From Escherichia coli (GTDB taxonomy: Bacteria > Pseudomonadota > Gammaproteobacteria > Enterobacterales > Enterobacteriaceae): 64,000 bases of DNA. Below are positions 2,482-61,518 of this stretch, piece after piece. The notes beneath the pieces are model-generated. The model was not told where the DNA came from. It ran no database searches and saw nothing but the letters and a program-made list of their open reading frames with translations. The position numbers were made by a program, and so were the translations under genes. Position 1 is the first letter of the stretch. Each line of letters begins with the position of its first letter. The stretch is taken from the NCBI RefSeq assembly GCF_001677475.2, contig NZ_CP015229.1; one strand, given 5' to 3'.

Positions 2482-3930
2482 ATGAGCGCCATAGATTCCC
2501 AACTTCCCTCATCTTCAGGGCAAGATCGCCCAACTGATGAGGTTGACCGCATATTATCACCAGGAAAGCTGATCATACTCGGTCTGCAACACGTCCTTGT
2601 CATGTACGCAGGTGCAGTCGCTGTTCCTCTTATGATTGGTGACCGACTGGGCCTCTCAAAAGAAGCTATTGCGATGCTCATTAGCTCGGATCTCTTTTGC
2701 TGCGGGATCGTCACATTATTGCAATGTATCGGTATCGGCCGCTTTATGGGGATCCGCCTGCCGGTGATTATGTCGGTGACCTTCGCCGCTGTAACACCAA
2801 TGATAGCCATTGGGATGAACCCGGATATCGGCCTGCTGGGGATATTCGGTGCCACTATCGCCGCGGGTTTTATCACCACATTATTAGCGCCACTTATCGG
2901 TCGCTTGATGCCTTTATTCCCGCCACTGGTTACCGGTGTGGTTATTACTTCTATCGGACTTAGCATCATTCAGGTGGGTATTGACTGGGCCGCAGGAGGT
3001 AAAGGGAATCCGCAATATGGTAATCCTGTTTATTTAGGTATCTCCTTTGCTGTCTTAATTTTTATCTTGCTCATTACTCGCTATGCGAAAGGATTTATGT
3101 CCAACGTCGCCGTATTACTGGGGATTGTATTTGGCTTTTTACTTTCGTGGATGATGAATGAAGTCAATTTATCCGGGCTACATGATGCTTCATGGTTTGC
3201 GATTGTCACGCCGATGTCATTTGGTATGCCGATTTTCGATCCCGTTTCCATTCTGACCATGACTGCCGTGTTAATCATCGTGTTTATCGAGTCGATGGGG
3301 ATGTTCCTGGCACTGGGTGAAATAGTCGGTCGTAAACTCTCTTCACACGATATTATTCGCGGGTTGCGTGTCGATGGCGTAGGGACAATGATAGGCGGAA
3401 CGTTTAACAGCTTCCCCCACACGTCATTTTCTCAAAACGTTGGCCTGGTTAGCGTGACGCGCGTTCATAGCCGCTGGGTGTGTATTTCTTCGGGAATTAT
3501 ATTAATCCTGTTTGGCATGGTGCCAAAAATGGCGGTGCTGGTCGCCTCCATTCCGCAATTTGTGCTGGGCGGTGCTGGGCTGGTGATGTTCGGCATGGTA
3601 CTGGCGACAGGGATTCGAATTCTGTCGCGCTGTAACTACACCACCAACCGTTACAACCTCTATATTGTGGCGATCAGTCTCGGCGTTGGCATGACTCCGA
3701 CGCTCTCTCACGATTTCTTTTCTAAGTTACCGGCCGTACTGCAACCGTTGCTGCATAGCGGCATTATGCTCGCAACCCTTAGCGCCGTTGTGCTGAACGT
3801 CTTCTTTAATGGCTATCAGCATCATGCTGATCTGGTGAAGGAATCCGTCTCTGATAAAGATTTAAAAGTCAGGACAGTACGTATGTGGCTTCTGATGCGC
3901 AAGCTGAAGAAAAATGAGCATGGAGAATAA
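2482..3930 (+). CDS. uacT: NCS2-family uric acid/xanthine permease, 482 aa
   Basis: ORF 2353..3930; start chosen at ATG 2482 with AGGAG 9 nt upstream; polytopic membrane protein; position between ygfT and idi. Confidence 0.85.
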   Translation: MSAIDSQLPSSSGQDRPTDEVDRILSPGKLIILGLQHVLVMYAGAVAVPLMIGDRLGLSKEAIAMLISSDLFCCGIVTLLQCIGIGRFMGIRLPVIMSVTFAAVTPMIAIGMNPDIGLLGIFGATIAAGFITTLLAPLIGRLMPLFPPLVTGVVITSIGLSIIQVGIDWAAGGKGNPQYGNPVYLGISFAVLIFILLITRYAKGFMSNVAVLLGIVFGFLLSWMMNEVNLSGLHDASWFAIVTPMSFGMPIFDPVSILTMTAVLIIVFIESMGMFLALGEIVGRKLSSHDIIRGLRVDGVGTMIGGTFNSFPHTSFSQNVGLVSVTRVHSRWVCISSGIILILFGMVPKMAVLVASIPQFVLGGAGLVMFGMVLATGIRILSRCNYTTNRYNLYIVAISLGVGMTPTLSHDFFSKLPAVLQPLLHSGIMLATLSAVVLNVFFNGYQHHADLVKESVSDKDLKVRTVRMWLLMRKLKKNEHGE

Positions 3931-3931
3931 T

Positions 3932-4057
3932 ATGAATCTTTTAATGCGCGCTATATTCAGTCTGTTGTTGCTTTTTACTCTCTCTATTCCTGTCATTTCT
4001 GACTGTGTTGCAATGGCCATTGAAAGTCGCTTCAAATATATGATGCTGCTTTTTTAA
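3932..4057 (+). CDS. candidate small hydrophobic protein, 41 aa (MNLLMRAIFSLLLLFTLSIPVISDCVAMAIESRFKYMMLLF)
   Basis: ATG 2 nt after the uacT stop with GGAG 6 nt upstream; single predicted TM helix; too short for the ORF track; not validated. Confidence 0.25.
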   Translation: MNLLMRAIFSLLLLFTLSIPVISDCVAMAIESRFKYMMLLF

Positions 4058-4178
4058 ATGGTTTTACCTGTCGACATCCGCTCAAAACGGGCGGTTGTCG
4101 ATAAACGCTCACTTGGTTAATCATTTCACTCTTCAATTATCTATAATGATGAGTGATCAGAATTACATGTGAGAAATT

Positions 4179-4727
4179 ATGCAAACGGAACACGTCATTT
4201 TATTGAATGCACAGGGAGTTCCCACGGGTACGCTGGAAAAGTATGCCGCACACACGGCAGACACTCTCTTACATCTCGCGTTCTCCAGTTGGCTGTTTAA
4301 TGCCAAAGGACAATTATTAGTTACCCGCCGCGCTCTGAGCAAAAAAGCATGGCCTGGCGTGTGGACTAACTCGGTTTGTGGGCACCCACAACTGGGAGAA
4401 AGCAACGAAGACGCGGTGATCCGCCGTTGCCGTTATGAGCTTGGCGTGGAAATTACGCCTCCTGAATCTATCTATCCTGACTTTCGCTATCGCGCCACCG
4501 ATCCGAATGGCATTGTGGAAAATGAAGTGTGTCCGGTATTTGCCGCACGCACGACCAGTGCATTACAGATCAACGATGATGAAGTGATGGATTATCAATG
4601 GTGTGATTTAGCAGATGTATTACACGGTATTGATGCCACACCGTGGGCGTTCAGTCCGTGGATGGTGATGCAGGCAGCCAATAGTGAAGCAAGAAAATTG
4701 TTGTCTGCTTTCGCGCAGCACAATTAA
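4179..4727 (+). CDS. idi: isopentenyl-diphosphate delta-isomerase, 182 aa
   Basis: ORF 4179..4727; Nudix-type IPP isomerase sequence; convergent with lysS. Confidence 0.9.
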
Positions 4728-4752
4728 AAAACCCCGACATTTGCCGGGGTTG
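4726..4752. terminator. bidirectional intrinsic terminator between convergent idi and lysS
   Basis: Stem CCCCG/CGGGG (4732-4749) flanked by an A-run upstream, which is a T-run on the lysS strand. Confidence 0.6.
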
Positions 4753-4769
4753 TGAGCATAACGTAATGC

Positions 4770-6287
4770 TTATTTTACCGGACGCATCGCCGGGAACAGA
4801 ATAACGTCGCGGATGGTATGGCTGTTGGTGAACAGCATTACCATACGGTCGATACCAATTCCCAGACCTGCTGTCGGCGGTAAGCCGTGTTCCAGTGCGG
4901 TGACATAATCTTCGTCGTAGAACATCGCTTCGTCGTCACCTGCATCTTTCGCGGCAACCTGATCCAGGAAGCGCTGCGCCTGATCTTCCGCGTCATTCAG
5001 CTCGCTAAAGCCGTTACCGATTTCACGACCACCGATAAAGAACTCAAAGCGGTCTGTGATTTCCGGGTTAACGTCGTTACGACGCGCCAGCGGAGAAACT
5101 TCTGCCGGATATTCAGTAATGAAGGTCGGCTGGATCAGATGTGCTTCTGCCACTTCTTCGAAGATCTCGGTAACGATACGGCCCAGACCCCAGCTCTTCT
5201 CAACGTGGATGCCGATAGATTCAGCAATCGCTTTCGCAGAGTCGAAGTTGTCCAGATCTGCCATGTCGGTTTCCGGGCGATATTTCTTGATCGCTTCACG
5301 CATGGTCAGTTTTTCGAACGGTTTACCGAAGTCCAGCGTTACGTCGCCGTAGGTCACTTCCGTCTTACCGAGAATATCCTGTGCCAGAGTACGGAACAGC
5401 GATTCGGTCAGCTCGATCAGATCTTTGTAATCTGCGTAAGCCATATAGAGTTCCATCATGGTGAACTCTGGGTTATGACGTACGGAAATACCTTCGTTAC
5501 GGAAGTTACGGTTGATTTCGAATACACGCTCGAAGCCACCGACCACCAGACGCTTGAGGTACAGTTCCGGCGCGATACGCAGGTACATGTCGAGATCCAG
5601 CGCATTATGGTGGGTGATGAACGGACGCGCAGCCGCACCGCCTGGGATCACCTGCATCATCGGCGTTTCAACTTCCATAAAGCCGCGATTCACCATGAAC
5701 TGGCGAATGCCAGAGAGGATCTGCGAGCGCACTTTAAAGGTGTTGCGGGATTCATCGTTAGAGATGAGATCCAGATAACGCTGACGATAGCGCGCTTCCT
5801 GGTCCTGCAAGCCGTGGAATTTGTCCGGCAGCGGACGCAGTGCTTTGGTCAGCAGACGCAGCTCGGTGCAGTGGATAGACAGTTCGCCAGTTTTGGTTTT
5901 GAACAGTTTACCTTTCGCGCCGAGGATGTCGCCGAGGTCCCATTTTTTGAACTGCTCGTTGTAAACGCCTTCCGGCAGATCGTCACGGGCAACGTACAGC
6001 TGAATGCGGCCCCCCACGTCCTGCAGGGTAACGAAAGACGCTTTACCCATAATACGACGGGTCATCATGCGGCCGGCAACGGCGACTTCGATGTTCAGCG
6101 CTTCCAGTTCTTCGTTCTCTTTACCGTCGAATTCTGCGTGCAATTGGTCAGAGGTATGATCGCGACGGAAATCGTTCGGGAAGGCAATCCCCTGCTCGCG
6201 CAGGTTCGCCAGCTTCTCACGACGCGTTTTCAGTTCATTGTTAAGATCGACTACCGCGTCAGCGCCCTGTGCGTGTTGTTCAGACAT
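4770..6287 (-). CDS. lysS: lysyl-tRNA synthetase (constitutive), 505 aa
   Basis: ORF 4770..6287; class II aaRS; immediately downstream of prfB as in the prfB-lysS operon. Confidence 0.95.
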
Positions 6288-6296
6288 GTTGGTTCC

Positions 6297-7395
6297 TCAT
6301 AACCCTGCTTTCAAACTTGCTTCGATAAATTGATCCAGGCTGCCGTCCAGCACGGCCTGCGTGTTACGGGTTTCTACCCCGGTACGCAGATCTTTAATGC
6401 GGGAGTCATCAAGGACATAAGAACGAATCTGGCTGCCCCAGCCGATGTCGGATTTGTTATCTTCCATCGCCTGCTTCTCGGCATTTTTCTTCTGCATCTC
6501 CAGTTCATAAAGCTTCGCTTTCATCTGCTTCATGGCCTGGTCTTTGTTCTTGTGCTGGGAACGGTCGTTCTGGCACTGGGTCACGATCCCAGTTGGGATG
6601 TGAGTAATACGCACCGCAGATTCGGTACGGTTAACGTGCTGACCGCCCGCGCCGGACGCGCGATAAACGTCAATGCGCAGATCCGCCGGGTTGATTTCGA
6701 TATCAATATCATCATCAACTTCCGGGTAAACAAACGCAGAGCTGAACGACGTGTGGCGACGACCGCCGGAGTCAAACGGGCTCTTACGCACCAGGCGGTG
6801 AACGCCAGTTTCTGTACGCAGCCAGCCGTAAGCGTAATCGCCGGAGATTTTGATCGTCACGGATTTAATACCCGCCACTTCACCTTCCGACTCTTCGATG
6901 ATTTCAGTTTTGAAACCACGCGATTCTGCCCAGCGCAGATACATACGCTCAAGCATGCTCGCCCAGTCCTGTGCTTCCGTACCGCCAGACCCCGCCTGAA
7001 TATCGAGGTAGCAGTCGGCGCTGTCATATTCGCCAGAGAACATACGGCGGAACTCAAGCTGCGCCAGTTTTTCTTCCAGGGCGTCGAGTTCAGCAACGGC
7101 TTCGTTAAAGGTTTCTTCGTCGTCAGCTTCTACAGCCAGTTCCAGCAGACCAGAAACATCTTCCAGCCCCTGTTTCATTTGGTCGAGGGTGTCGACAACG
7201 GCTTCGAGGGAGGAACGCTCTTTACCCAGCGCCTGTGCGCGTTCGGGTTCGTTCCAGACATCCGGCTGTTCCAGCTCGGCGTTTACTTCTTCCAGACGCT
7301 CTTTCTTGGCGTCGTAGTCAAAGATACCCCCTAAGAACGTCGGAGCGTTCCGTGAGGTCCTGAATGCGATTATTTACCGGATTAATTTCAAACAT
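6297..7395 (-). CDS. prfB: peptide chain release factor 2, made by programmed +1 frameshift (365 aa)
   Basis: Frame 0 is ATG 7395..7393 through Leu25 (7324..7322) then in-frame TGA (7320..7318); the +1 frame continues 7319..6297 and matches ORF 6297..7178. Site reads CTT AGG GGG TAT CTT TGA C with the internal SD AGGGGG. Confidence 0.95.
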
Positions 7396-7485
7396 GGTCT
7401 GATTTCTTTTATTGAGCTAGTCAAAATGCGGTGATAAGAGCGGGATTGTACCCAATCCACGCTCTTTTTTATAGAGAAGATGACG

Positions 7486-9219
7486 CTAAATTGGCCAGAT
7501 ATTGTCGATGATAATTTGCAGGCTGCGGTTGCCGCGAAACTCGTTAATATCGAGCTTGTAAGCCAGTTGTACTTCGCGCACGCCGTTATCCGGCCAGAGG
7601 GCGGTATCGACATTAAAAGCAATACCATCCAGCAGCGGACCGCCGCCGACCGGTTCGACCATCACCTTCAAATGACGTTCGCCCACCAGCCGCTGTTGCA
7701 GCAGACGGAAATGACCGTCAAACAGCGGCTCCGGGAACATCTGCCCCCACGGGCCAGCATCGCGCAGCAGCTGAGCCACTTCCATGGTCATTTCGGCCGG
7801 GCTTAACGGACCGTCTGACACTACTTCGCCTTGCAATAGCGAAGGGTCCAGCCACTCAGAAACCAGTTCGCCAAACCGTTGTTGAAAGAGTTCGAATTTA
7901 TCCTCTTCCAGCGACAAACCCGCCGCCATCGCATGACCGCCAAACTTGAGCATCATGCCGGGGTAGAGTGTGTCTAATCGCTCCAGCGCATCACGCATAT
8001 GCAGCCCCTGAATCGAGCGACCGGAACCTTTCAGCGTACCGTCACCTGCTGGCGCAAAGGCGATAACCGGACGGTGAAAACGCTCTTTGATGCGCGAAGC
8101 CAGAATACCGACAACGCCCTGATGCCATTCGGGGTGATACATTGCCAGCCCGCCGGGTAGCGTGTCACGGCTGCGCTCCAGTTTCTCGCACAGGGTCAGG
8201 GCTTCAATCTGCATTCCTTGTTCGATCTCTTTTCGCGTCTGGTTTAGCGCATCGAGTTCATTTGCCAGCACGCGCGCTTCGCCGATGTTGTCGCAGAGCA
8301 ACAGCGCCACACCGACGGACATATCATCCAGTCGCCCGGCAGCATTGAGACGTGGCCCCAGCGCAAAACCTAAATCGCTGGCGGCGAGTTTTTGTGCATC
8401 ACGGTTTGCCACTTCAAGCAGAGCTTTAATCCCTGGACGGCACTTTCCGGCACGGATGCGACTCATCCCCTGCCAGGTCAGAATGCGATTATTAGCGTCC
8501 AGCGGCACGACGTCCGCTACTGTCCCCAGCGCGACCAGATCCAGCAGTTCTGCCAGGTTAGGAATTGCGATGCCATGCTCATCAAACCAGCCCTGATCAC
8601 GCAAAAAGGTGCGCAGCGCCAGCATCAGATAAAACGCCACACCCACGCCTGCCAGTGATTTCGACGGGAAATTACAGTCGCGCAAGTTAGGGTTAATGAT
8701 CGCTTCCGCTGCGGGTAATGTGTCGCCCGGCAAATGGTGATCGGTAACAATAACCGGAATGCCCAACGAGCGAGCGTGTTCAACCCCCGCATGGGAGGAA
8801 ATTCCGTTATCCACCGTGACAATTAACTGCGCGCCACGGGCATGGGCCTGATCGACCACTTCCGGGCTTAAGCCGTAACCGTCTTCGAAACGGTTTGGAA
8901 CCAGGTAGTCGATATTGCTGCAACCAAGCGAGCGCATCGCCAGCACGCTTAGAGCCGTACTGGTGGCACCGTCTGCGTCGAAATCACCGACCACAATAAT
9001 CCGCGTTCCTTCGCGAAAAGCGTTGTAAAGGATCTCAACGGCCTTTTCGACGCCGCTCAGTTGCTGCCAGGGCAGCATACCTTTAACACTGCGTTCCAGT
9101 TCTTGCGCACTGCGTACTCCCCGGCTGGCGTATAAACGGCGCAGCAAGGGAGGCAATTCAGCGGGCAAGTCTGCCGTTTCATCGACTTCACGGCGACGAA
9201 GTTGTATCTGTTGTTTCAC
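7486..9219 (-). CDS. recJ: single-strand-specific 5'-3' DNA exonuclease RecJ, 577 aa
   Basis: ORF 7486..9219; DHH phosphoesterase motifs (VVGDFDADG, DHH); xerD-dsbC-recJ order. Confidence 0.95.
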   Translation of the reverse strand: MKQQIQLRRREVDETADLPAELPPLLRRLYASRGVRSAQELERSVKGMLPWQQLSGVEKAVEILYNAFREGTRIIVVGDFDADGATSTALSVLAMRSLGCSNIDYLVPNRFEDGYGLSPEVVDQAHARGAQLIVTVDNGISSHAGVEHARSLGIPVIVTDHHLPGDTLPAAEAIINPNLRDCNFPSKSLAGVGVAFYLMLALRTFLRDQGWFDEHGIAIPNLAELLDLVALGTVADVVPLDANNRILTWQGMSRIRAGKCRPGIKALLEVANRDAQKLAASDLGFALGPRLNAAGRLDDMSVGVALLLCDNIGEARVLANELDALNQTRKEIEQGMQIEALTLCEKLERSRDTLPGGLAMYHPEWHQGVVGILASRIKERFHRPVIAFAPAGDGTLKGSGRSIQGLHMRDALERLDTLYPGMMLKFGGHAMAAGLSLEEDKFELFQQRFGELVSEWLDPSLLQGEVVSDGPLSPAEMTMEVAQLLRDAGPWGQMFPEPLFDGHFRLLQQRLVGERHLKVMVEPVGGGPLLDGIAFNVDTALWPDNGVREVQLAYKLDINEFRGNRSLQIIIDNIWPI

Positions 9220-9224
9220 GCGAA

Positions 9225-9935
9225 TTATTTACCGCTGGTCATTTTTTGGTGTTCGTCGAGGAATTCTTTCATGTCTTTCGGTGGCTGGTAACCCGGAACA
9301 AGTGTGCCATTGCTCAGCACAATTGCCGGTGTGCCGCTAACGCCAAGCTGGACGCCAAGTGCGTAATGATCGGCAATATCGATATCGCAACTTGCCGGAG
9401 TGGCAGCTTTACCTGCCATCACATCATCAAACGCTTTGTTTTTATCTTTCGCACACCAGATAGCTTTCATTTCTTTCTCTGCATCGCTGTCCAGCCCCTG
9501 GCGCGGGAAAGCAAGATAACGCACGGTGATCCCCAGCGCGTTGTAGTCTGCCATTTGCTCATGCAGTTTGTGGCAGTAACCACAGGTAATATCAGTAAAC
9601 ACGGTGATGACGTGTTTTTCCTGCGGCGCTTTATAAACGATCATCTCTTTTTCAAGCGCATTCAACTGCTTTAACAGCATCTTATTGGTGACATTGACCG
9701 GAGCCGTGCCACTAACGTCATACATTGGCCCCTGAATGATATGTTTACCATCATCGGTGATGTACAACACACCGCTGTTAGTCAGAACTGTCTTCATGCC
9801 AGCTACAGGCGCGGGCTGAATATCGCTGCTTTTGATGCCCATTTTGGCTAACGTTTGTTGAATTGCCGCGTCATCAGCCTGAGCAAAGCCTGAAAACGCC
9901 GCTAACAAAGTAAACAACATAAAACCTTTCTTCAT
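9225..9935 (-). CDS. dsbC: periplasmic disulfide isomerase DsbC, 236 aa
   Basis: ORF 9225..9935; signal peptide and CGYC active site. Confidence 0.95.
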   Translation of the reverse strand: MKKGFMLFTLLAAFSGFAQADDAAIQQTLAKMGIKSSDIQPAPVAGMKTVLTNSGVLYITDDGKHIIQGPMYDVSGTAPVNVTNKMLLKQLNALEKEMIVYKAPQEKHVITVFTDITCGYCHKLHEQMADYNALGITVRYLAFPRQGLDSDAEKEMKAIWCAKDKNKAFDDVMAGKAATPASCDIDIADHYALGVQLGVSGTPAIVLSNGTLVPGYQPPKDMKEFLDEHQKMTSGK

Positions 9936-9959
9936 AAATCTTCCCGTTCTTTTCAGACA

Positions 9960-10856
9960 TCACGCCCGCGGGTGATGCTGTTGATGAAGTTGCCGCAGAC
10001 GCTCGGTAGCGACATGCGTATAAATTTGCGTGGTGGAGAGATCGCTGTGGCCCAGTAGCATCTGCACCACGCGTAAATCCGCACCATGATTTAATAAATG
10101 AGTGGCAAAAGCGTGACGCAACACATGCGGTGACAGCTTTTCGCTGTCGATACCCGCCAGCACGGCATAATGTTTAATGCGGTGCCAGAAGGTTTGTCGC
10201 GTCATCTGCTGCGCACGCTGGCTGGGGAACAACACATCAATAGAGACACCGTTCAACAACCACGGTCGCCCATGCTCGAGATACGTTTCCAGCCAGTAAA
10301 CCGCCTCTTCACCTAACGGTACCAGGCGCTCTTTGTTGCCTTTACCAATGACCCGCACTACGCCCTGACGCAGGCTGATATCACTCATTGTCAGTCCGAC
10401 CAGTTCAGAGACACGCAGCCCGGTAGCATACAACACTTCAAGCATGGCTTTATCGCGTAGCTCCAGTGGCTGATCAATTAATGGTGCCTGTAATAAACGT
10501 TCAACCTGCGCTTCGCTTAAATCTTTTGGCAAACGCTGGGGCAATTTCGGTGAAGCGAGATGCGCACTGGGATCGTCTTCACGAAACTTTTCGCGATAAA
10601 GATACTGGAACAATCGGCGCACTGCACTCAGCAAACGCGCTGAGCTGGTGGCTTTATACCCGCCCTCCAGCCGTTCTGCCAGTAATGCCTGCAAATCGTC
10701 ACTTTGCGCAGTCGCCAGCGTCAACCCGCGGTGATGCAACCACTCCACCATCATTGACAGATCGCGACGGTATGCGTTCAACGTATTTTCAGCCAGATTT
10801 TTTTCCAGCCACAGAGCATCAAGAAACTGCTCGATGCGTGCCAGATCCTGTTTCAC
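9960..10856 (-). CDS. xerD: site-specific tyrosine recombinase XerD, 298 aa
   Basis: ORF 9960..10856; tyrosine recombinase C-terminal motifs (HxLRH...Y); core gene, not an integrase of a mobile element. Confidence 0.95.
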   Translation of the reverse strand: MKQDLARIEQFLDALWLEKNLAENTLNAYRRDLSMMVEWLHHRGLTLATAQSDDLQALLAERLEGGYKATSSARLLSAVRRLFQYLYREKFREDDPSAHLASPKLPQRLPKDLSEAQVERLLQAPLIDQPLELRDKAMLEVLYATGLRVSELVGLTMSDISLRQGVVRVIGKGNKERLVPLGEEAVYWLETYLEHGRPWLLNGVSIDVLFPSQRAQQMTRQTFWHRIKHYAVLAGIDSEKLSPHVLRHAFATHLLNHGADLRVVQMLLGHSDLSTTQIYTHVATERLRQLHQQHHPRA

Positions 10857-10967
10857 TTGCGCCCCTTATGGTCACTCATTTGATCCATTATGCCTTATTG
10901 TGCCGTGACTAAAGCGATTCTGATACACTAGCCGCAAAAGCCACAGCAGAATCGAGAAGCTTACGTT

Positions 10968-11489
10968 ATGAATATGGGTCTTTTTTACGGTTCCAGCACC
11001 TGTTACACCGAAATGGCGGCAGAAAAAATCCGCGATATTATCGGCCCAGAACTGGTGACCTTACATAACCTCAAGGACGACTCCCCGAAATTAATGGAGC
11101 AGTACGATGTGCTCATTCTGGGTATCCCGACCTGGGATTTTGGCGAAATCCAGGAAGACTGGGAAGCCATCTGGGATCAGCTCGACGACCTGAACCTCGA
11201 AGGTAAAATTGTTGCGCTGTATGGGCTTGGCGATCAACTGGGATACGGCGAGTGGTTCCTCGATGCGCTCGGTATGCTGCATGACAAGCTCTCGACCAAA
11301 GGCGTGAAGTTCGTCGGCTACTGGCCAACGGAAGGATATGAGTTTACCAGCCCGAAACCGGTGATTGCTGACGGGCAACTGTTCGTGGGCCTGGCGCTGG
11401 ACGAAACTAATCAGTATGACCTTAGCGACGAGCGTATTCAGAACTGGTGCGAGCAAATCCTCAACGAAATGGCAGAGCATTACGCCTGA
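10968..11489 (+). CDS. fldB: flavodoxin 2, 173 aa
   Basis: ORF 10968..11489; flavodoxin fold sequence; divergent from xerD. Confidence 0.9.
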
Positions 11490-16916: not shown

Positions 16917-17106
16917 TAAAGGCGCCGAAGCGCCTTTCAAATTGATGACAAAGTGCGTTTTTATGCCGGATGCGGCGTGAACGCCTTATCCAGCCTACAA
17001 GATCGTGCAAATTCAATACATTGCAGAGACCATGTAGGCCTGATAAACGAAGTGCATCAGGCAATGTTGAGTTTGTCATCAGCCTCAAAGGCGCCGAAGC
17101 GCCTTT
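16917..17106. repeat. REP pair (BIME/RIP-like): two inverted REP units with a linker, bracketed by duplicated hairpin AAAGGCGCCGAAGCGCCTTT
   Basis: REP unit TGCCGGATGCGGCGTGAACGCCTTATCCAGCCTAC (about 16964-16998) and inverted unit TGCCTGATGCACTTCGTTTATCAGGCCTAC (about 17033-17064); identical 20-bp hairpins at 16918-16937 and 17087-17106. Confidence 0.8.
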
Positions 17107-26943: not shown

Positions 26944-27127
26944 ATTTCTCTGAGATGTTCGCAAGCGGGCCAGTCCCCTGAGCCGATATTTCATACCACA
27001 AGAATGTGGCGCTCCGCGGTTGGTGAGCATGCTCGGTCCGTCCGAGAAGCCTTAAAACTGCGACGACACATTCACCTTGAACCAAGGGTTCAAGGGTTAC
27101 AGCCTGCGGCGGCATCTCGGAGATTCC
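26944..27127 (+). ncRNA. ssrS: 6S RNA
   Basis: Matches the E. coli 6S RNA as I remember it from ATTTCTCTGAGATGTTCGCAAGCGGGCCAGTCCCC to GGCATCTCGGAGATTCC; ends approximate to a few nt. Confidence 0.9.
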
Positions 27128-27750: not shown

Positions 27751-27810
27751 GGGCGACACACCTGCATCGCCCTGATTGACATCGTTGATTCTTTAACCTA
27801 ATTTAGTGAG

Positions 27811-27951
27811 TAAGGGTAAGGGAGGATTGCTCCTCCCCTGAGACTGACTGTTAATAAGCTGGGAAACTTATGAGTAACAGTACAATCAGTATGATGACAA
27901 GTCGCATCATAACCCTTCTCCTTTAAGCCCTCGCTTCGGTGAGGGCTTTTC
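27811..27951 (+). ncRNA. sibC: Sib-family antitoxin sRNA (SibC), antisense to ibsC
   Basis: Promoter TTGACA (27776-27781), 17-nt spacer, TAATTT (27799-27804); terminator hairpin AGCCCTCGCTTCGGTGAGGGCT plus T-run at 27926-27951; ends approximate. Confidence 0.65.
27851..27910 (-). CDS. ibsC: type I toxin peptide IbsC, 19 aa (MMRLVIILIVLLLISFPAY as translated here)
   Basis: Minus-strand ATG 27910..27908 to TAA 27853..27851; short hydrophobic peptide fully inside the antisense sRNA. Confidence 0.7.
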   Translation of the reverse strand: MMRLVIILIVLLLISFPAY

Positions 27952-41050: not shown

Positions 41051-41250
41051 GCTTTTGGCGAAAAATCCCCGCAGAGCGGGGCTCAGACAGATATCAATGT
41101 GCGCTTTGTCATGCCGGATGCGGCGTGAACGCCTTATCCGGCCTACAAAAACCTGCAAATTCAATATATTGCAGGATACGTGTAGGCCTGATAAGCGTAG
41201 CGCATCAGGCAACTTTTCTTTTGGCGAAAAAAAGACCCGCAGAGCGGGCC
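41051..41250. repeat. REP pair (BIME/RIP-like) bracketed by a ~30-bp direct repeat containing a small hairpin
   Basis: REP unit TGCCGGATGCGGCGTGAACGCCTTATCCGGCCTAC and inverted unit TGCCTGATGCGCTACGCTTATCAGGCCTAC; flanks TTTTGGCGAAAAA..CCCGCAGAGCGGG at 41054-41083 and 41220-41250. Confidence 0.8.
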
Positions 41251-57174: not shown

Positions 57175-57933
57175 ATGAAAATTCGCGCCTTATTGGTAGC
57201 AATGAGCGTGGCAACGGTACTGACCGGTTGCCAGAATATGGACTCCAACGGACTGCTCTCATCAGGAGCGGAAGCTTTTCAGGCTTACAGTTTGAGTGAT
57301 GCGCAGGTGAAAACCCTGAGCGATCAGGCATGTCAGGAGATGGACAGCAAGGCGACGATTGCGCCAGCCAATAGCGAATACGCTAAACGTCTGACAACTA
57401 TTGCCAATGCGCTAGGCAACAATATCAACGGTCAGCCGGTGAATTACAAAGTGTATATGGCGAAGGATGTGAACGCCTTTGCAATGGCTAACGGCTGTAT
57501 CCGCGTCTATAGCGGGCTGATGGATATGATGACGGATAACGAAGTCGAAGCGGTGATCGGTCACGAGATGGGGCACGTGGCGTTAGGCCATGTGAAAAAA
57601 GGGATGCAGGTGGCGCTTGGTACAAATGCCGTGCGAGTAGCTGCGGCCTCTGCGGGCGGGATTGTCGGCAGTTTATCGCAATCACAACTTGGTGATCTGG
57701 GCGAGAAATTAGTCAATTCGCAATTCTCCCAGCGCCAGGAAGCAGAAGCCGATGATTACTCTTATGATCTTCTGCGCCAACGCGGCATCAGCCCGGCAGG
57801 TCTTGCCACCAGCTTTGAAAAACTGGCGAAACTGGAAGAAGGCCGCCAAAGCTCAATGTTTGACGACCACCCAGCATCCGCCGAACGCGCCCAGCATATT
57901 CGCGATCGTATGAGCGCGGATGGGGTTAAGTGA
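57175..57933 (+). CDS. loiP: outer-membrane M48-family metalloprotease LoiP, 252 aa
   Basis: 3' part of ORF 56956..57933; start at MKIRALLVAM (ATG 57175); lipobox LTGC; HEMGH zinc motif. Confidence 0.9.
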   Translation: MKIRALLVAMSVATVLTGCQNMDSNGLLSSGAEAFQAYSLSDAQVKTLSDQACQEMDSKATIAPANSEYAKRLTTIANALGNNINGQPVNYKVYMAKDVNAFAMANGCIRVYSGLMDMMTDNEVEAVIGHEMGHVALGHVKKGMQVALGTNAVRVAAASAGGIVGSLSQSQLGDLGEKLVNSQFSQRQEAEADDYSYDLLRQRGISPAGLATSFEKLAKLEEGRQSSMFDDHPASAERAQHIRDRMSADGVK

Positions 57934-57940
57934 TTTCATA

Positions 57941-57972
57941 TTTCTCCGACAGGAATGTCGGAGAAATTTTCA
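57941..57972 (+). terminator. loiP intrinsic terminator
   Basis: TTTCTCCGACA-GGAAT-GTCGGAGAAA followed by TTTTCATTC. Confidence 0.75.
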
Positions 57973-58018
57973 TTCAGGATCGGTCACAGTCATTAAACAA
58001 GCTCAATCATTGGGGGCA

Positions 58019-59581
58019 TCAATTCGCTTCGTAGATTGCTTTATCCGGTGTATCCGATTGCACCTCTACTACATCGGCAGTGCTTACGCCACAAGCCCAG
58101 GCAAAAGCCGTCTCTGTTCCTTCAGGTAATGGAGTATCCCAGGGTAAAGTACGCCACGGACTCCCCTGCTCTTTTAATAAAGATGTAATGGCTTTCTTAA
58201 AAAGAATATGGGTAATCAGGTGCCGTTTATCCGTTGCTTTCCAGTACCAACGGGCCAGCAAAAAATGTCCGGCCAATTCGCGCCAGCTTCTGTAATGTTG
58301 CTGTACGCGTCTGGCTGCCAGCATCGAAAAATCGACCATTTCACGCTGGGTAATGTATCCCACTTGCGCCCCGCTATTACATAGCATGACAAAGCGCACC
58401 ATATCCCAGGCACAAAAATCTATGTCGCATATTTTACGTCGATTTTTTCTGACCATCTGTAGCTGCCACAAACGCTCTTTCGCTTCGCTACTTAATTTCG
58501 CGTTCTGAGCTAATTGCTGAGCGAACGCGCTATATTCAGCATCCGGCATTTCGCTATCGTTTTTGATCTGTTCTTCATAAACTGAACGATGCCCTGCTAC
58601 AAACAAAGCTAAGAGTTGCTCAAGTAACGAATCCCGATCAAAGACGCCCCACATGTCAGCAAGGGACTCAACTTCACTTTTGCAATCATTCTCTGCTTCC
58701 ACGGAATCATCATTAACGACTCGTCGCGCCCAGTGATTGTTACCCGCAATGGCATAAGGCGCGCCGACTGCCATTGCCCAACGTTCGGCAGCAGGAATTT
58801 TTTGAATTGAGGGATCTTTACAGGATGCTTTGAAAAGGCGATGTCCGGCGAACACCAGGCCATAACCAATCCACAAAACAGCCACCAAGGCGAGAATAAG
58901 TATTATCGCTACCAGATAAAGGGCATATTTGCCTATTGTCAGTAAGACATCCAGCCAGGAAGAGTCTGGCTCCGTAACTGTTTGCTCCACCGATGTCAAA
59001 GGGGACTTACTGACCCGCTCTGGCGCGGTCCTCGTCAACAGAGGGAAATCCCTATGTTGCTTGAATGAGCGTTTTTTAAGCAAATCTATTTTTTTCTGCA
59101 CCTCATCAGTAACCCGACCGTTTTTTTCAAACTCATGTAACGATGCAAAATCAATCGCCGCAATCTTCCATTTACCATCCCCTTCACGGATTAATTCCAT
59201 TGGAATATCAATATAAGATTGGTGACCAAAAAAAGCACCAATCTGCGCCTTGTCGCCTTCGACGAAGGTCGCTAAAGGATCGCTATAACTGGGGAAACGT
59301 CGTTTACACGTTTTGGGTGACTCTTGCCAGTATTTCAGTACAGGCTCCATTAAAGCAGGCGTAAATACTTGCTGCATTTCCACAAGGCGATCGTGCGAAT
59401 CTGTGCTGGTGACAAACTCAGGGCCACATAATGCGCGATAACTCTTTTTGACGACAGAGGAAATAGCTTCTTTGTCTTGTTGCAGCTGTGCGGCAATTTT
59501 CTGTTTTTCTGCTCTATCGCAGCCAGTTGATAAAAGAAATAACAAACAAAGAAGAGGCTTCCAGGGAAGAGTGCGTTCCAT
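58019..59581 (-). CDS. hypothetical membrane protein, 520 aa: N-terminal signal/lipobox-like segment, one internal TM helix, large C-terminal domain (possibly DUF1266-like)
   Basis: ORF 58019..59581; N-terminus MERTLPWKPLLCLLFLLSTGC; internal hydrophobic segment YALYLVAIILILALVAVLWIGYGLVFAG; domain assignment is from memory and tentative. Confidence 0.7.
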   Translation of the reverse strand: MERTLPWKPLLCLLFLLSTGCDRAEKQKIAAQLQQDKEAISSVVKKSYRALCGPEFVTSTDSHDRLVEMQQVFTPALMEPVLKYWQESPKTCKRRFPSYSDPLATFVEGDKAQIGAFFGHQSYIDIPMELIREGDGKWKIAAIDFASLHEFEKNGRVTDEVQKKIDLLKKRSFKQHRDFPLLTRTAPERVSKSPLTSVEQTVTEPDSSWLDVLLTIGKYALYLVAIILILALVAVLWIGYGLVFAGHRLFKASCKDPSIQKIPAAERWAMAVGAPYAIAGNNHWARRVVNDDSVEAENDCKSEVESLADMWGVFDRDSLLEQLLALFVAGHRSVYEEQIKNDSEMPDAEYSAFAQQLAQNAKLSSEAKERLWQLQMVRKNRRKICDIDFCAWDMVRFVMLCNSGAQVGYITQREMVDFSMLAARRVQQHYRSWRELAGHFLLARWYWKATDKRHLITHILFKKAITSLLKEQGSPWRTLPWDTPLPEGTETAFAWACGVSTADVVEVQSDTPDKAIYEAN

Positions 59582-59664
59582 CTATTTATTCCATTAAAAA
59601 CACGGTAATAACAATCCATTAAAAAACAGCAGTCAGGGTAAAGATGACTTAATTAACAGGATAG

Positions 59665-59701
59665 GTTTTAAATGATAAGTCCCTTGTGCCAGACAAGGGA
59701 C
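59665..59701 (-). terminator. hairpin downstream of speB
   Basis: Perfect 8-bp stem GTCCCTTG/CAAGGGAC followed on the minus strand by a T-rich tract. Confidence 0.5.
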
Positions 59702-59730
59702 TGTGCAAAAAATTCGACCAGGCAGGTTAC

Positions 59731-60651
59731 TTACTCGCCCTTTTTCGCCGCCTGAATATACAGCATCTCCAGCGCCAGCGTTGCCGCTGCCAGAGCAGTG
59801 ATTTCCGACTGATCGTATGCCGGAGCCACTTCCACTACGTCCATCCCAACGATGTTGAGATCTTTCAGGCCGCGTACCAGTTTAATGGCGCGATCGGAGG
59901 TCAGGCCGCCAATTACCGGCGTACCGGTGCCTGGTGCAAAAGCAGGATCCAGGCAGTCGATATCAAAGGTCAGGTAAACCGGCATATCACCCACAATCTG
60001 TTTCACCTGGGCGATAACATCATCCACGCTGCGATCGTTCACCTGGCAGGCGTCCAGCACGGTAAAGCCGTTGTCTTTATCAAACTCGGTACGAATACCA
60101 ATCTGCACGGAATGATTCGGGTCAATCAGACCTTCTTTTGGCGCGGTATAGAACATCGTGCCGTGGTCAAATTCACAACCGTTCGCATAGGTATCGGTGT
60201 GAGCGTCAAAGTGTACCAGCGCCATTTTGCCGAAATGTTTTGCATGGGCGCGCAGCAGCGGCAGCGTAACAAAGTGGTCACCACCGAAGGAGAGCATACG
60301 CTTACCGGCAGCCAGCAGTTTCTCTGCGTGCGCCTGCAATTTCTCGCTCATCTCACGGGCATCGCCGAAGGCATATACCAGATCGCCGCAGTCCACGACG
60401 TTCAGGCGCTCGCGCATGTCGAAATTCCACGGGAAACGGTTGTGTTCCCAGGCCAGGTTAGTTGATACCTGACGGATAGCCGCCGGACCGTGACGACCAC
60501 CCGCACGACCAGAAGTGGCCATATCGAACGGTACGCCGGTAATCACCCAGTCAGCATCGCTGTCATACGGCTGGAAGTTCATCGGCAGGCGTAAAAAACC
60601 AAAGGCGTTGGAAACCAGTGAGTTATCGTATTGATGCCCTAAGGTGCTCAT
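59731..60651 (-). CDS. speB: agmatinase (agmatine ureohydrolase), 306 aa
   Basis: ORF 59731..60651; arginase-fold metal-binding motifs ([14 protein letters not shown]). Confidence 0.95.
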
Positions 60652-60786: not shown

Positions 60787-61518
60787 CTATTTCCGACACG
60801 GTGGCGGCGCATAGCCATTGTTATCTGCTGGAAAAGCTTGTCCAGAGCACGGTGGCAGCGCGTTTTGCGCCGGGCCTTGTAATTCAAAGGCGGCAAAGCC
60901 GATTACCCCGGTATTACGCACATCGCCTTGCGCCGAATTGGCGGCGTAGGAATCAGCAACGTTGGCGAACTGAAAAGCCGCTTCGGTATGTTTATCTTTG
61001 CGGAATCCTTTAATCGCTAACGAATCTCCGGCATTCACAATATAACCGTTGTTATTCAGCGAACCTTGCTTGCCGTTCAGCACATCCAGGCCATCAACCG
61101 TAGCAACGATCTCGTAATTGGTGTTCCGGCTGTAGTTACGGACATATAATTGATAATTCATCCCCACTCTGGCATGAACAATATATCGCGGTTCATTATT
61201 TGATGAATCATAAACTCGCGTAATAGGTAGAGAATTAAAATTCGCATCACGAATAGCATATTCCAGTTCGTTAATACGAATGCTATAAACACGGTCGTAG
61301 CCGGAAGGAATATTTGTCGAATAATTAATAACGATCATCTCTGCCGGATCGCGCCAGGCGCGTTCAGCAGATACGCCCTGAACCGTTGAGTGCACATCTC
61401 CACCCCAGGCAGTGCCGACATTGCCCGATGCACTGCTATTATACTGCGCATTACTTGAGCAACCAGCCAACAACACGACTAATGCCACCAACGCGCTACG
61501 TACTTTCCATTTTTTCAT
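60787..61518 (-). CDS. hypothetical lipoprotein, 243 aa
   Basis: ORF 60787..61518; signal peptide with classic lipobox (VVLLAG-C, Cys20); N/S/Y-rich mature part; no domain recognised. Confidence 0.7.
   Translation of the reverse strand: MKKWKVRSALVALVVLLAGCSSNAQYNSSASGNVGTAWGGDVHSTVQGVSAERAWRDPAEMIVINYSTNIPSGYDRVYSIRINELEYAIRDANFNSLPITRVYDSSNNEPRYIVHARVGMNYQLYVRNYSRNTNYEIVATVDGLDVLNGKQGSLNNNGYIVNAGDSLAIKGFRKDKHTEAAFQFANVADSYAANSAQGDVRNTGVIGFAAFELQGPAQNALPPCSGQAFPADNNGYAPPPCRK

Follow-up and report, generated by a model that had tools for sequence, protein, structure and literature searches.

The 64,000-nucleotide stretch of Escherichia coli contig NZ_CP015229.1 analyzed here (assembly GCF_001677475.2; hereafter, the window) carries, between loiP (57175–57933, plus strand) and speB (59731–60651, minus strand), a minus-strand open reading frame that starts with ATG and encodes a 520-amino-acid protein of the DUF1266 family (Table 1). 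The first-pass annotation had reported an extra gene at this position relative to K-12, and comparison with strain MG1655 bore this out: there loiP ends at 3082671, speB starts at 3082877, and nothing is annotated in the 205-bp spacer between them, the DUF1266 gene being absent from the site. The spacer of an empty-site, K-12-type strain is made up of REP/BIME-type palindromic repeats. Homology between occupied and empty sites ends precisely at the stop codons of loiP and speB, indicating that the 1,797-bp segment and the REP spacer are alternative cassettes. The two hairpins said to bound the gene are present, that on the loiP side being followed by the letters TTTTCATTC. No sigma-70 promoter consensus was found in the AT-rich region 5′ of the gene. 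We detected no flanking direct or inverted repeats, integrase, or other mobility genes between loiP and speB, where repeats are short and at chance level; the segment does not qualify as a mobile element or genomic island as recognized by an integrase or transposase, flanking repeats, or a tRNA attachment site, and Rfam searches returned no RNA family within or close to it.

Table 1 Features of the loiP–speB interval in the window, with the predicted domains of the DUF1266-family protein
Feature	Position	Strand	Basis or remark
Variable segment, loiP stop to speB stop	57934..59730	.	1,797 bp, 45.4% GC; replaced by 205-bp REP/BIME spacer in K-12-type genomes
Hairpin terminator between convergent loiP and DUF1266 genes	57940..57967	+	12-bp stem, T-rich tail
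CDS, 520-aa DUF1266-family predicted inner-membrane lipoprotein	58019..59581	-	ORF, Pfam match, homologues, dN/dS
All-alpha DUF1266 domain, predicted cytoplasmic, aa 246-490	58112..58846	-	Pfam match aa 306-481, nt 58139-58666
Predicted transmembrane helix, aa 208-245, hydrophobic core 220-238	58847..58960	-	Hydropathy and AlphaFold2; acidic flank before, basic after
Linker, aa 179-207, disordered at about aa 189-204	58961..59047	-	pLDDT < 50 at 189-204; 10-19% identity between genera
Putative NTF2-like domain, predicted periplasmic, aa 22-178, helices and 4-stranded sheet	59048..59518	-	AlphaFold2 pLDDT mostly 87-97; Cys52/Cys92 pair
Putative lipoprotein signal peptide, aa 1-21, lipobox LSTG/C21	59519..59581	-	Lipobox regular expression; Asp22 (+2) as inner-membrane retention signal, lipidation inferred
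AT-rich 5′ region of DUF1266 gene	59582..59677	-	Direct repeat TCCATTAAAAA at 59590-59600 and 59615-59625
Hairpin downstream of speB, upstream of DUF1266-gene 5′ region	59678..59702	- (speB strand)	10-bp stem

The DUF1266 gene is a real, intact, stand-alone accessory gene that codes for protein and is under selection. It is not a chance reading frame, because it encodes a Pfam domain, has homologues in other genera, and evolves with dN/dS ratios of 0.14–0.31. Its GC content of 46.4% (44% at third codon positions, GC3) compares with 53–57% (GC3 57–63%) in tkt, loiP, speB, and speA and falls in the lowest 4% among equal-sized windows of the 64 kb, so that the AT-richness earlier noticed by eye is confirmed. 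Five E. coli alleles, including that of the window, differ by dS values of 0.02–0.12, comparable to those of tkt (0.06–0.16) and loiP (0.05–0.11), and their dN/dS is below 1 in both domains, although constraint is weaker than in the core neighbors (dN/dS 0.00–0.09). One pair of alleles is mosaic: the N-terminal halves are identical, and the C-terminal halves differ by a dS of 0.17. In one class of alleles, a nonsense codon at position 90 interrupts the frame, which annotation splits into two ORFs, and truncated versions of the gene are common in sequencing-run assemblies; the window and, by a wide margin, most of the carriers listed have the complete reading frame.

Low GC content together with absence from outgroup representatives points to horizontal acquisition, which probably took place early in E. 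coli diversification and was followed by repeated loss or replacement through recombination in the flanking core genes. The gene had first been described as inserted; its absence from K-12 stands, and the description is refined to an old presence/absence polymorphism between the gene and the REP cassette, because its alleles have diverged (dS up to 0.12) about as much as the flanking core genes. Read most simply, the gene is an old acquisition, with the direction of the original event inferred, that has persisted as a polymorphism while homologous recombination in the flanks shuffled it.

Within E. coli, 211 of 5,426 complete genomes (3.9%) carry the gene, always as a single chromosomal copy annotated as ‘DUF1266 domain-containing protein’, and natural carriers include O121:H19 and O103:H2 strains. 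It lies between loiP and speB in every carrier inspected; in 175 genomes a single place covers at least 80% of a 4.7-kb loiP–speA query, which means that the gene must occupy that position. A candidate second location in strain IH5 (H60) was rejected: it is pieced together from partial genes and is probably an artefact of assembly. Beyond the species, HMMER was run against 1.84 billion representative proteins and yielded 1,230 DUF1266 relatives (clusters at E ≤ 1e-3). Setting aside representatives that are fragments of the E. coli gene, only two of these (P0009 and P0010) match over approximately the full length; in a third cluster, from Leminorella, the match begins at the linker. The full-length matches named in AFDB50 are from E. 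coli, Hafnia alvei, and Leminorella grimontii, and all AFDB50 matches are either DUF1266-labelled or uncharacterized. Homologues in other genera are 39–59% identical to the E. coli protein. When one genome per species was scanned with two invariant peptide patterns (~100,000 species), only Klebsiella spallanzanii and Leminorella grimontii were recovered, with no match in another Escherichia species, Salmonella, or Citrobacter. Searches for phage matches found none, and the plasmid matches were distant only. The gene is therefore rare and sporadic in E. coli and a handful of Enterobacterales. Its neighbors differ among E. coli, Klebsiella, Hafnia-type, Leminorella, and Proteus loci, the contexts outside E. 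coli being marC, an ADH/ABC transporter, cupin/flavodoxin, and uvrB–moaA, and no neighboring gene recurs for the membrane-anchored clade across seven homologue neighborhoods.

The N-terminus has the build of a lipoprotein signal peptide, with two basic residues followed by a hydrophobic stretch and the lipobox, in keeping with what was first noticed there. Residues 11–21 (LCLLFLLSTGC) match a PROSITE-style lipobox pattern, taken here as [LVI][ASTVI][GAS]C after an n-region and an h-region with Asp at +2, and each of the ten family members, even those as low as 39% identity, has both the lipobox pattern and the Cys-Asp pair. Under the +2 rule of Enterobacterales, Asp at this position holds a lipoprotein in the inner membrane, as in AcrA and NlpA, which avoid the Lol system. 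The 520-aa protein is thus predicted to be lipidated and retained in the inner membrane. Classical Asp+2 lipoproteins share the lipobox and Cys-Asp arrangement, but they have the lipid anchor only, whereas the window protein adds a transmembrane helix and a large cytoplasmic domain as predicted; such a double anchor of lipid and helix is uncommon.

The part that follows the signal peptide had been described as a Lys/Glu-rich domain of about 200 residues. That composition holds (9.3% Lys, 7.7% Glu), and the description is refined to a folded, putatively NTF2-like domain rather than a low-complexity region. An AlphaFold2 model built from a 104-sequence alignment has a mean pLDDT of 88, and the best PDB matches of the N-terminal domain found with Foldseek (PARC6, limonene epoxide hydrolase, Tai3, and YybH), although weak (E 0.4–3, target-normalized TM-scores 0.3–0.5), are all NTF2-like folds. 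These NTF2-like/SnoaL-type proteins, which include the intermembrane-space domain of PARC6 and the immunity protein Tai3, share the alpha+beta cone topology predicted for the N-terminal domain, whose helices would pack against a curved four-stranded sheet; at E values above 0.4, TM-scores of up to 0.51, and 10–18% identity, their catalytic and binding residues are not transferable to it. Pfam gave no match for the domain, and our searches for independent homologues outside the family returned nothing beyond fragments of this E. coli gene. A conserved pair of cysteines, Cys52 and Cys92, is confined to this domain and would fit an oxidizing compartment. In the Leminorella relative, the lipobox, linker, helix, and DUF1266 domain are kept and the NTF2-like domain is missing, a natural deletion.

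The single strongly hydrophobic helix that had been placed near residue 230 is indeed the only one in the protein (Kyte–Doolittle peak 3.07, residues 220–238) and, together with the lipobox N-terminus, agrees with the bitopic architecture proposed at first. Acidic residues precede it and H247, R248, K251, K255, and K262 follow it, which by the positive-inside rule suggests that the C-terminal domain is cytoplasmic. These sequence features predict a topology in which the NTF2-like domain would lie in the periplasm and the DUF1266 domain in the cytoplasm.

The C-terminal domain, tentatively recognized beforehand as Trp-rich and DUF1266-like, contains 4.1% Trp and matches the whole of the Pfam DUF1266 model (PF06889) at residues 306–481 (model positions 1–175 of 175, E = 3.5e-29, score 102.7). 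In the 104-sequence alignment, conservation is complete or at least 90% at W311, G330-H331-R332, W392-D393, R396, E414, W433, R444, W447, P475, and W481, and the window protein contains the full set of family motifs (W..GHR, AWD..R, E, SW, GR.FW, and PW). DUF1266 has no solved structure, and searches of the PDB found no structural relative; the folds that resemble it do so only in part and are TPR-like helical repeats or helix bundles. TPR repeats are the most frequent fusion partner in multi-domain DUF1266 proteins, and one soluble homologue is encoded directly downstream of a TPR protein. Signal peptides occur in some DUF1266 proteins, and these members are probably periplasmic.

The nearest relatives of the C-terminal domain (~28–38% identity) are anchored DUF1266 proteins of 300–350 residues, found for example in Proteus, Photorhabdus, Xenorhabdus, and Providencia. 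Like the window family, they appear to be tethered at the cytoplasmic face by one helix and are encoded by stand-alone genes amid housekeeping genes; unlike it, they have almost no periplasmic part, and the window family adds to this plan the lipoprotein signal and the NTF2-like domain of ~155 residues (the latter not in Leminorella). In 22 of the 29 nearest DUF1266-only cluster representatives, an N-terminal hydrophobic anchor is followed by a net-positive flank, which suggests that their DUF1266 domain is cytoplasmic as well. These 22 anchored relatives, together with the Proteus gene, which stands alone between uvrB and yvcK/moaA, suggest that members of this clade typically reside at the cytoplasmic membrane face and have no operon partner.

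K-12 itself encodes two DUF1266 proteins, YbeR and YbeU, whose homology to the window protein is supported by BLASTP (E = 1e-8 and 2e-9) and hhalign (probability 99%), and which share with it the motifs WG..R, GH, AWD..R, SW, and GR.(Y/F)W. Both are soluble proteins of 235 residues with 21–24% identity to the window protein, which differs from them in carrying a lipobox, a periplasmic domain, and a transmembrane helix of its own, as predicted, and in not having a J-protein neighbor. The ybeR and ybeU genes overlap djlB and djlC, respectively, by 4 bp, are translationally coupled to them, and have Sel1-repeat genes and hscC, an Hsp70 gene, as neighbors. On an Erwinia plasmid the genes are ordered likewise: a DUF1266 gene overlaps a gene for an 887-aa J-protein (N-terminal J domain, C-terminal membrane domain) that is followed by hscC. 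With loiP and speB as its neighbors, the window gene does not belong by adjacency to a ybeR–djlB or ybeU–djlC–hscC module, and no J-protein, Hsp70, TPR, or Sel1 gene adjoins it or any of its full-length homologues. DjlC stimulates HscC, and DjlB, like DjlC, is a tail-anchored inner-membrane protein (PMC8215388); according to the same review, the clients of HscC–DjlB/DjlC are not known and the phenotype of the system is Cd2+ sensitivity (PMC8215388). Literature searches for ybeU and ybeR found no functional study.

We propose, tentatively and short of calling it probable, that the 520-aa protein is a doubly anchored inner-membrane adaptor, possibly linked to DjlB/DjlC–HscC. Cleavage at the lipobox would leave an acylated Cys21 that Asp22 keeps in the inner membrane; the NTF2-like domain would then face the periplasm, a single helix (residues ~216–243) would cross the membrane, and the conserved all-alpha DUF1266 domain would be placed at the cytoplasmic membrane face, so that the product is anchored twice. 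The fast-evolving periplasmic domain might bind an envelope ligand or protein, and the DUF1266 domain might serve as a protein-binding platform under the inner membrane that possibly engages DjlB/DjlC and the Hsp70 HscC. The adaptor idea follows from the partial TPR-like fold resemblance, the TPR fusions and TPR neighbor found in the family, and the coupling of ybeR/ybeU to djlB/djlC and hscC. Both the protein-binding role and the HscC link are read from the context of paralogues only, and for the latter these are the 21–24%-identical K-12 proteins, because the full-length homologues have no J-protein or Hsp70 neighbor. The NTF2-like domain is 27–42% identical between genera and the DUF1266 domain 51–68%, an asymmetry that suggests a variable sensor coupled to a conserved output. 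Two observations on the wider family run against an adaptor: some members are probably periplasmic, and that compartment has no Hsp70; and the invariant His, Arg, Asp, and Glu residues are also compatible with an enzyme or small-ligand site.

The main rival, less likely than the adaptor, is an orphan immunity or defense protein. Through its periplasmic NTF2-like domain, its membrane-tethered DUF1266 domain, or both, such a protein would neutralize an incoming T6SS, CDI, or colicin-type toxin, or it would block a step of phage infection at the inner membrane, and it would be kept only in exposed lineages. The sporadic occurrence and low GC content of the gene are what this predicts, as are a single-gene cassette that sits at a different site in each genus, the nonsense and truncated alleles, the weaker constraint on the gene than on its core neighbors, and the faster evolution of the domain that would face outward. 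A Bacteroides finegoldii plasmid carries two tandem DUF1266 genes within an array of Imm5, PoNe-immunity, and ankyrin genes that looks like a poly-immunity island, and the T6SS immunity protein Tai3 is among the weak fold matches of the N-terminal domain. Set against this, an immunity-array context was seen at only one of ~10 loci examined, and no toxin, immunity, T6SS, CDI, or Rhs gene adjoins the gene, either in the window or at homologous loci. PADLOC-DB 2.0 returned no family at E ≤ 0.1, carriage by phages was not found and carriage by plasmids is not notable, and the best-conserved part of the protein is the one predicted to be cytoplasmic, which is common to the housekeeping-like ybeR and ybeU.

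Rather less probable, in our judgment, is that DUF1266 is an all-alpha enzyme or small-ligand-binding domain whose substrate, for instance a lipid or an envelope precursor, is associated with the membrane; the anchor would position the domain and the periplasmic domain would regulate it. The (near-)invariance of H331, R332, D393, R396, E414, and R444 across more than 100 divergent sequences, along with many conserved Trp residues, is in line with such a site, and the existence of cytoplasmic, membrane-tethered, and apparently secreted DUF1266 forms would be expected if the substrate occurs on both membrane faces.

It is very doubtful that the gene is the decaying remnant of an old horizontal transfer, without current function. 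The nonsense codon in one allele class, the many truncated versions, and absence from 96% of complete genomes would suit decay, but the ORF is full-length in most carriers, both domains are under the purifying constraint described above, and the lipobox, the Cys pair, and the DUF1266 motifs are kept in other genera down to 39% identity. We rejected a functional link to loiP or speB, in which the protein would work with the LoiP protease or with SpeB/SpeA in polyamine synthesis, because synteny is not conserved elsewhere: physical adjacency is all that speaks for it, hairpin terminators separate the gene from both neighbors, its contexts in other genera are unrelated, and most E. coli run from loiP to speB without it.

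The adaptor reading can be extended, more speculatively, to a one-component trans-envelope device in which the NTF2-like domain is a receptor that controls the DUF1266 module through the helix, and the module either recruits or regulates HscC–DjlB/DjlC or acts as a single-gene membrane immunity or defense effector. We consider this improbable as a complete scheme; if true, it would open the whole DUF1266 family to functional study for the first time.

The 520-aa protein is already present in RefSeq and UniProt under an automatic DUF label, which is correct, and NCBIfam adds one weak, sub-threshold match (PRK11380, ‘hypothetical protein’). Profile, structure, and literature searches returned no characterized function for it, in agreement with the first-pass annotation. 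Literature searches with ‘PF06889’ and the protein accessions found nothing, nor did we find a characterized DUF1266 protein; the only mention of the domain was in an H-NS regulon table, for another locus tag, EC042_RS03510, which by its position is probably the ybeR/ybeU locus. What is new here is the fusion of a lipobox, a putative NTF2-like domain, and a transmembrane helix to DUF1266.

Accessory ORFs without an assigned function are common in the variable spacers of E. coli, and current knowledge is not overturned by this one. Its value is as a tractable entry to an unstudied, structurally novel, and widespread family: DUF1266 occurs widely across bacteria (over 1,200 clusters at 50% identity), functional literature on it is lacking, and its soluble K-12 members sit in the poorly understood HscC–DjlB–DjlC chaperone locus. 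By fixing DUF1266 at what is predicted to be the cytoplasmic face and coupling a periplasmic domain to it, the natural fusion makes topology, partners, and phenotype accessible to experiment in natural carriers. At the level of the locus, the arrangement loiP–[X]–speB–[Y]–speA contains two slots in which lipoprotein genes are present or absent independently of each other, and these might be of use as a lineage marker.

DUF1266 (PF06889) genes in Erwinia and in K-12 belong to a conserved module in which the DUF1266 gene overlaps the gene of a membrane J-domain protein and hscC adjoins, an arrangement that lends some support to the adaptor reading favoured for the window's protein. Both K-12 copies of the module, ybeR-djlB and ybeU-djlC, also adjoin Sel1-repeat genes. 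One observation on the side of the rival reading, in which the window's protein would be an orphan immunity or defence protein, comes from a Bacteroides finegoldii plasmid. There a tandem DUF1266 pair lies in a same-strand array with Imm5, PoNe-immunity, ankyrin-repeat and hypothetical genes that looks like a poly-immunity island, a hint that some members of the family may act in immunity.

The E. coli DUF1266 gene, which lies between loiP and speB, is not intact everywhere. In one allele class, about 97.1% identical, codon 90 is a nonsense codon; sequencing-run assemblies also contain many truncated versions. E. coli IH5 (NZ_CP168949.1) has a 647-bp piece of the gene, surrounded by a 12-kb stretch made up entirely of unrelated partial gene fragments; this locus is most likely a misassembly within a "complete" genome.

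Synonymous divergence of the window's speB, at 59731-60651, from five other E. coli alleles (dS 0.20-0.24) was higher than among those five (0.10-0.17), with no amino-acid changes between the window's allele and the others. The highest identity of the 25 kb at window positions 39001-64000 to any complete E. coli genome was only 97.4%, which suggests either that the Escherichia lineage of origin is a divergent one or that the tract is recombinant.

Besides the DUF1266 gene, the window holds a second variable gene, in the speB-speA gap, with a GC content of 48%. Its product, a predicted lipoprotein, had no Pfam match. K-12 lacks the gene, but among 5,426 complete E. coli genomes 3,556 carry it; none of these carriers has an allele more than 95.6% identical to the one in the window.

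The AT-rich region directly upstream of the DUF1266 start codon showed no sigma-70 promoter of consensus type; it contains two copies of the repeat TCCATTAAAAA, which could be a regulator binding site. Elsewhere in the window, the Rfam matches to 6S RNA, Sib RNA and ES036 are expected in E. coli and are unrelated to the DUF1266 gene.

Features of the window and of comparison loci (the latter in local coordinates)
Feature	Sequence	Coordinates	Strand	Detail
Variable gene, speB-speA gap	window	60787-61518	-	predicted lipoprotein of 243 aa; lipobox LLAG|C20 with Ser at +2
Direct repeat TCCATTAAAAA	window	59590-59600, 59615-59625		exact, 11 nt; two copies 25 nt apart
6S RNA	window	26944-27127		Rfam match
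Sib antitoxin RNA	window	27776-27926		Rfam match
ES036 element, first	window	16999-17041		Rfam match
ES036 element, second	window	41147-41189		Rfam match
Nonsense allele of DUF1266 gene	E. coli EC9, NZ_CP060950.1 (L016)	3999-5561		annotated as two ORFs
Module copy	Erwinia persicina pEP2 (L019)	5989-11088		J-protein 887 aa, C-terminal DUF805 membrane domain
Module, two copies	K-12 (L008)	2712-9394		ybeR-djlB, ybeU-djlC
Two tandem DUF1266 genes	Bacteroides finegoldii plasmid NZ_OY725934.1 (L020)	5620-7435
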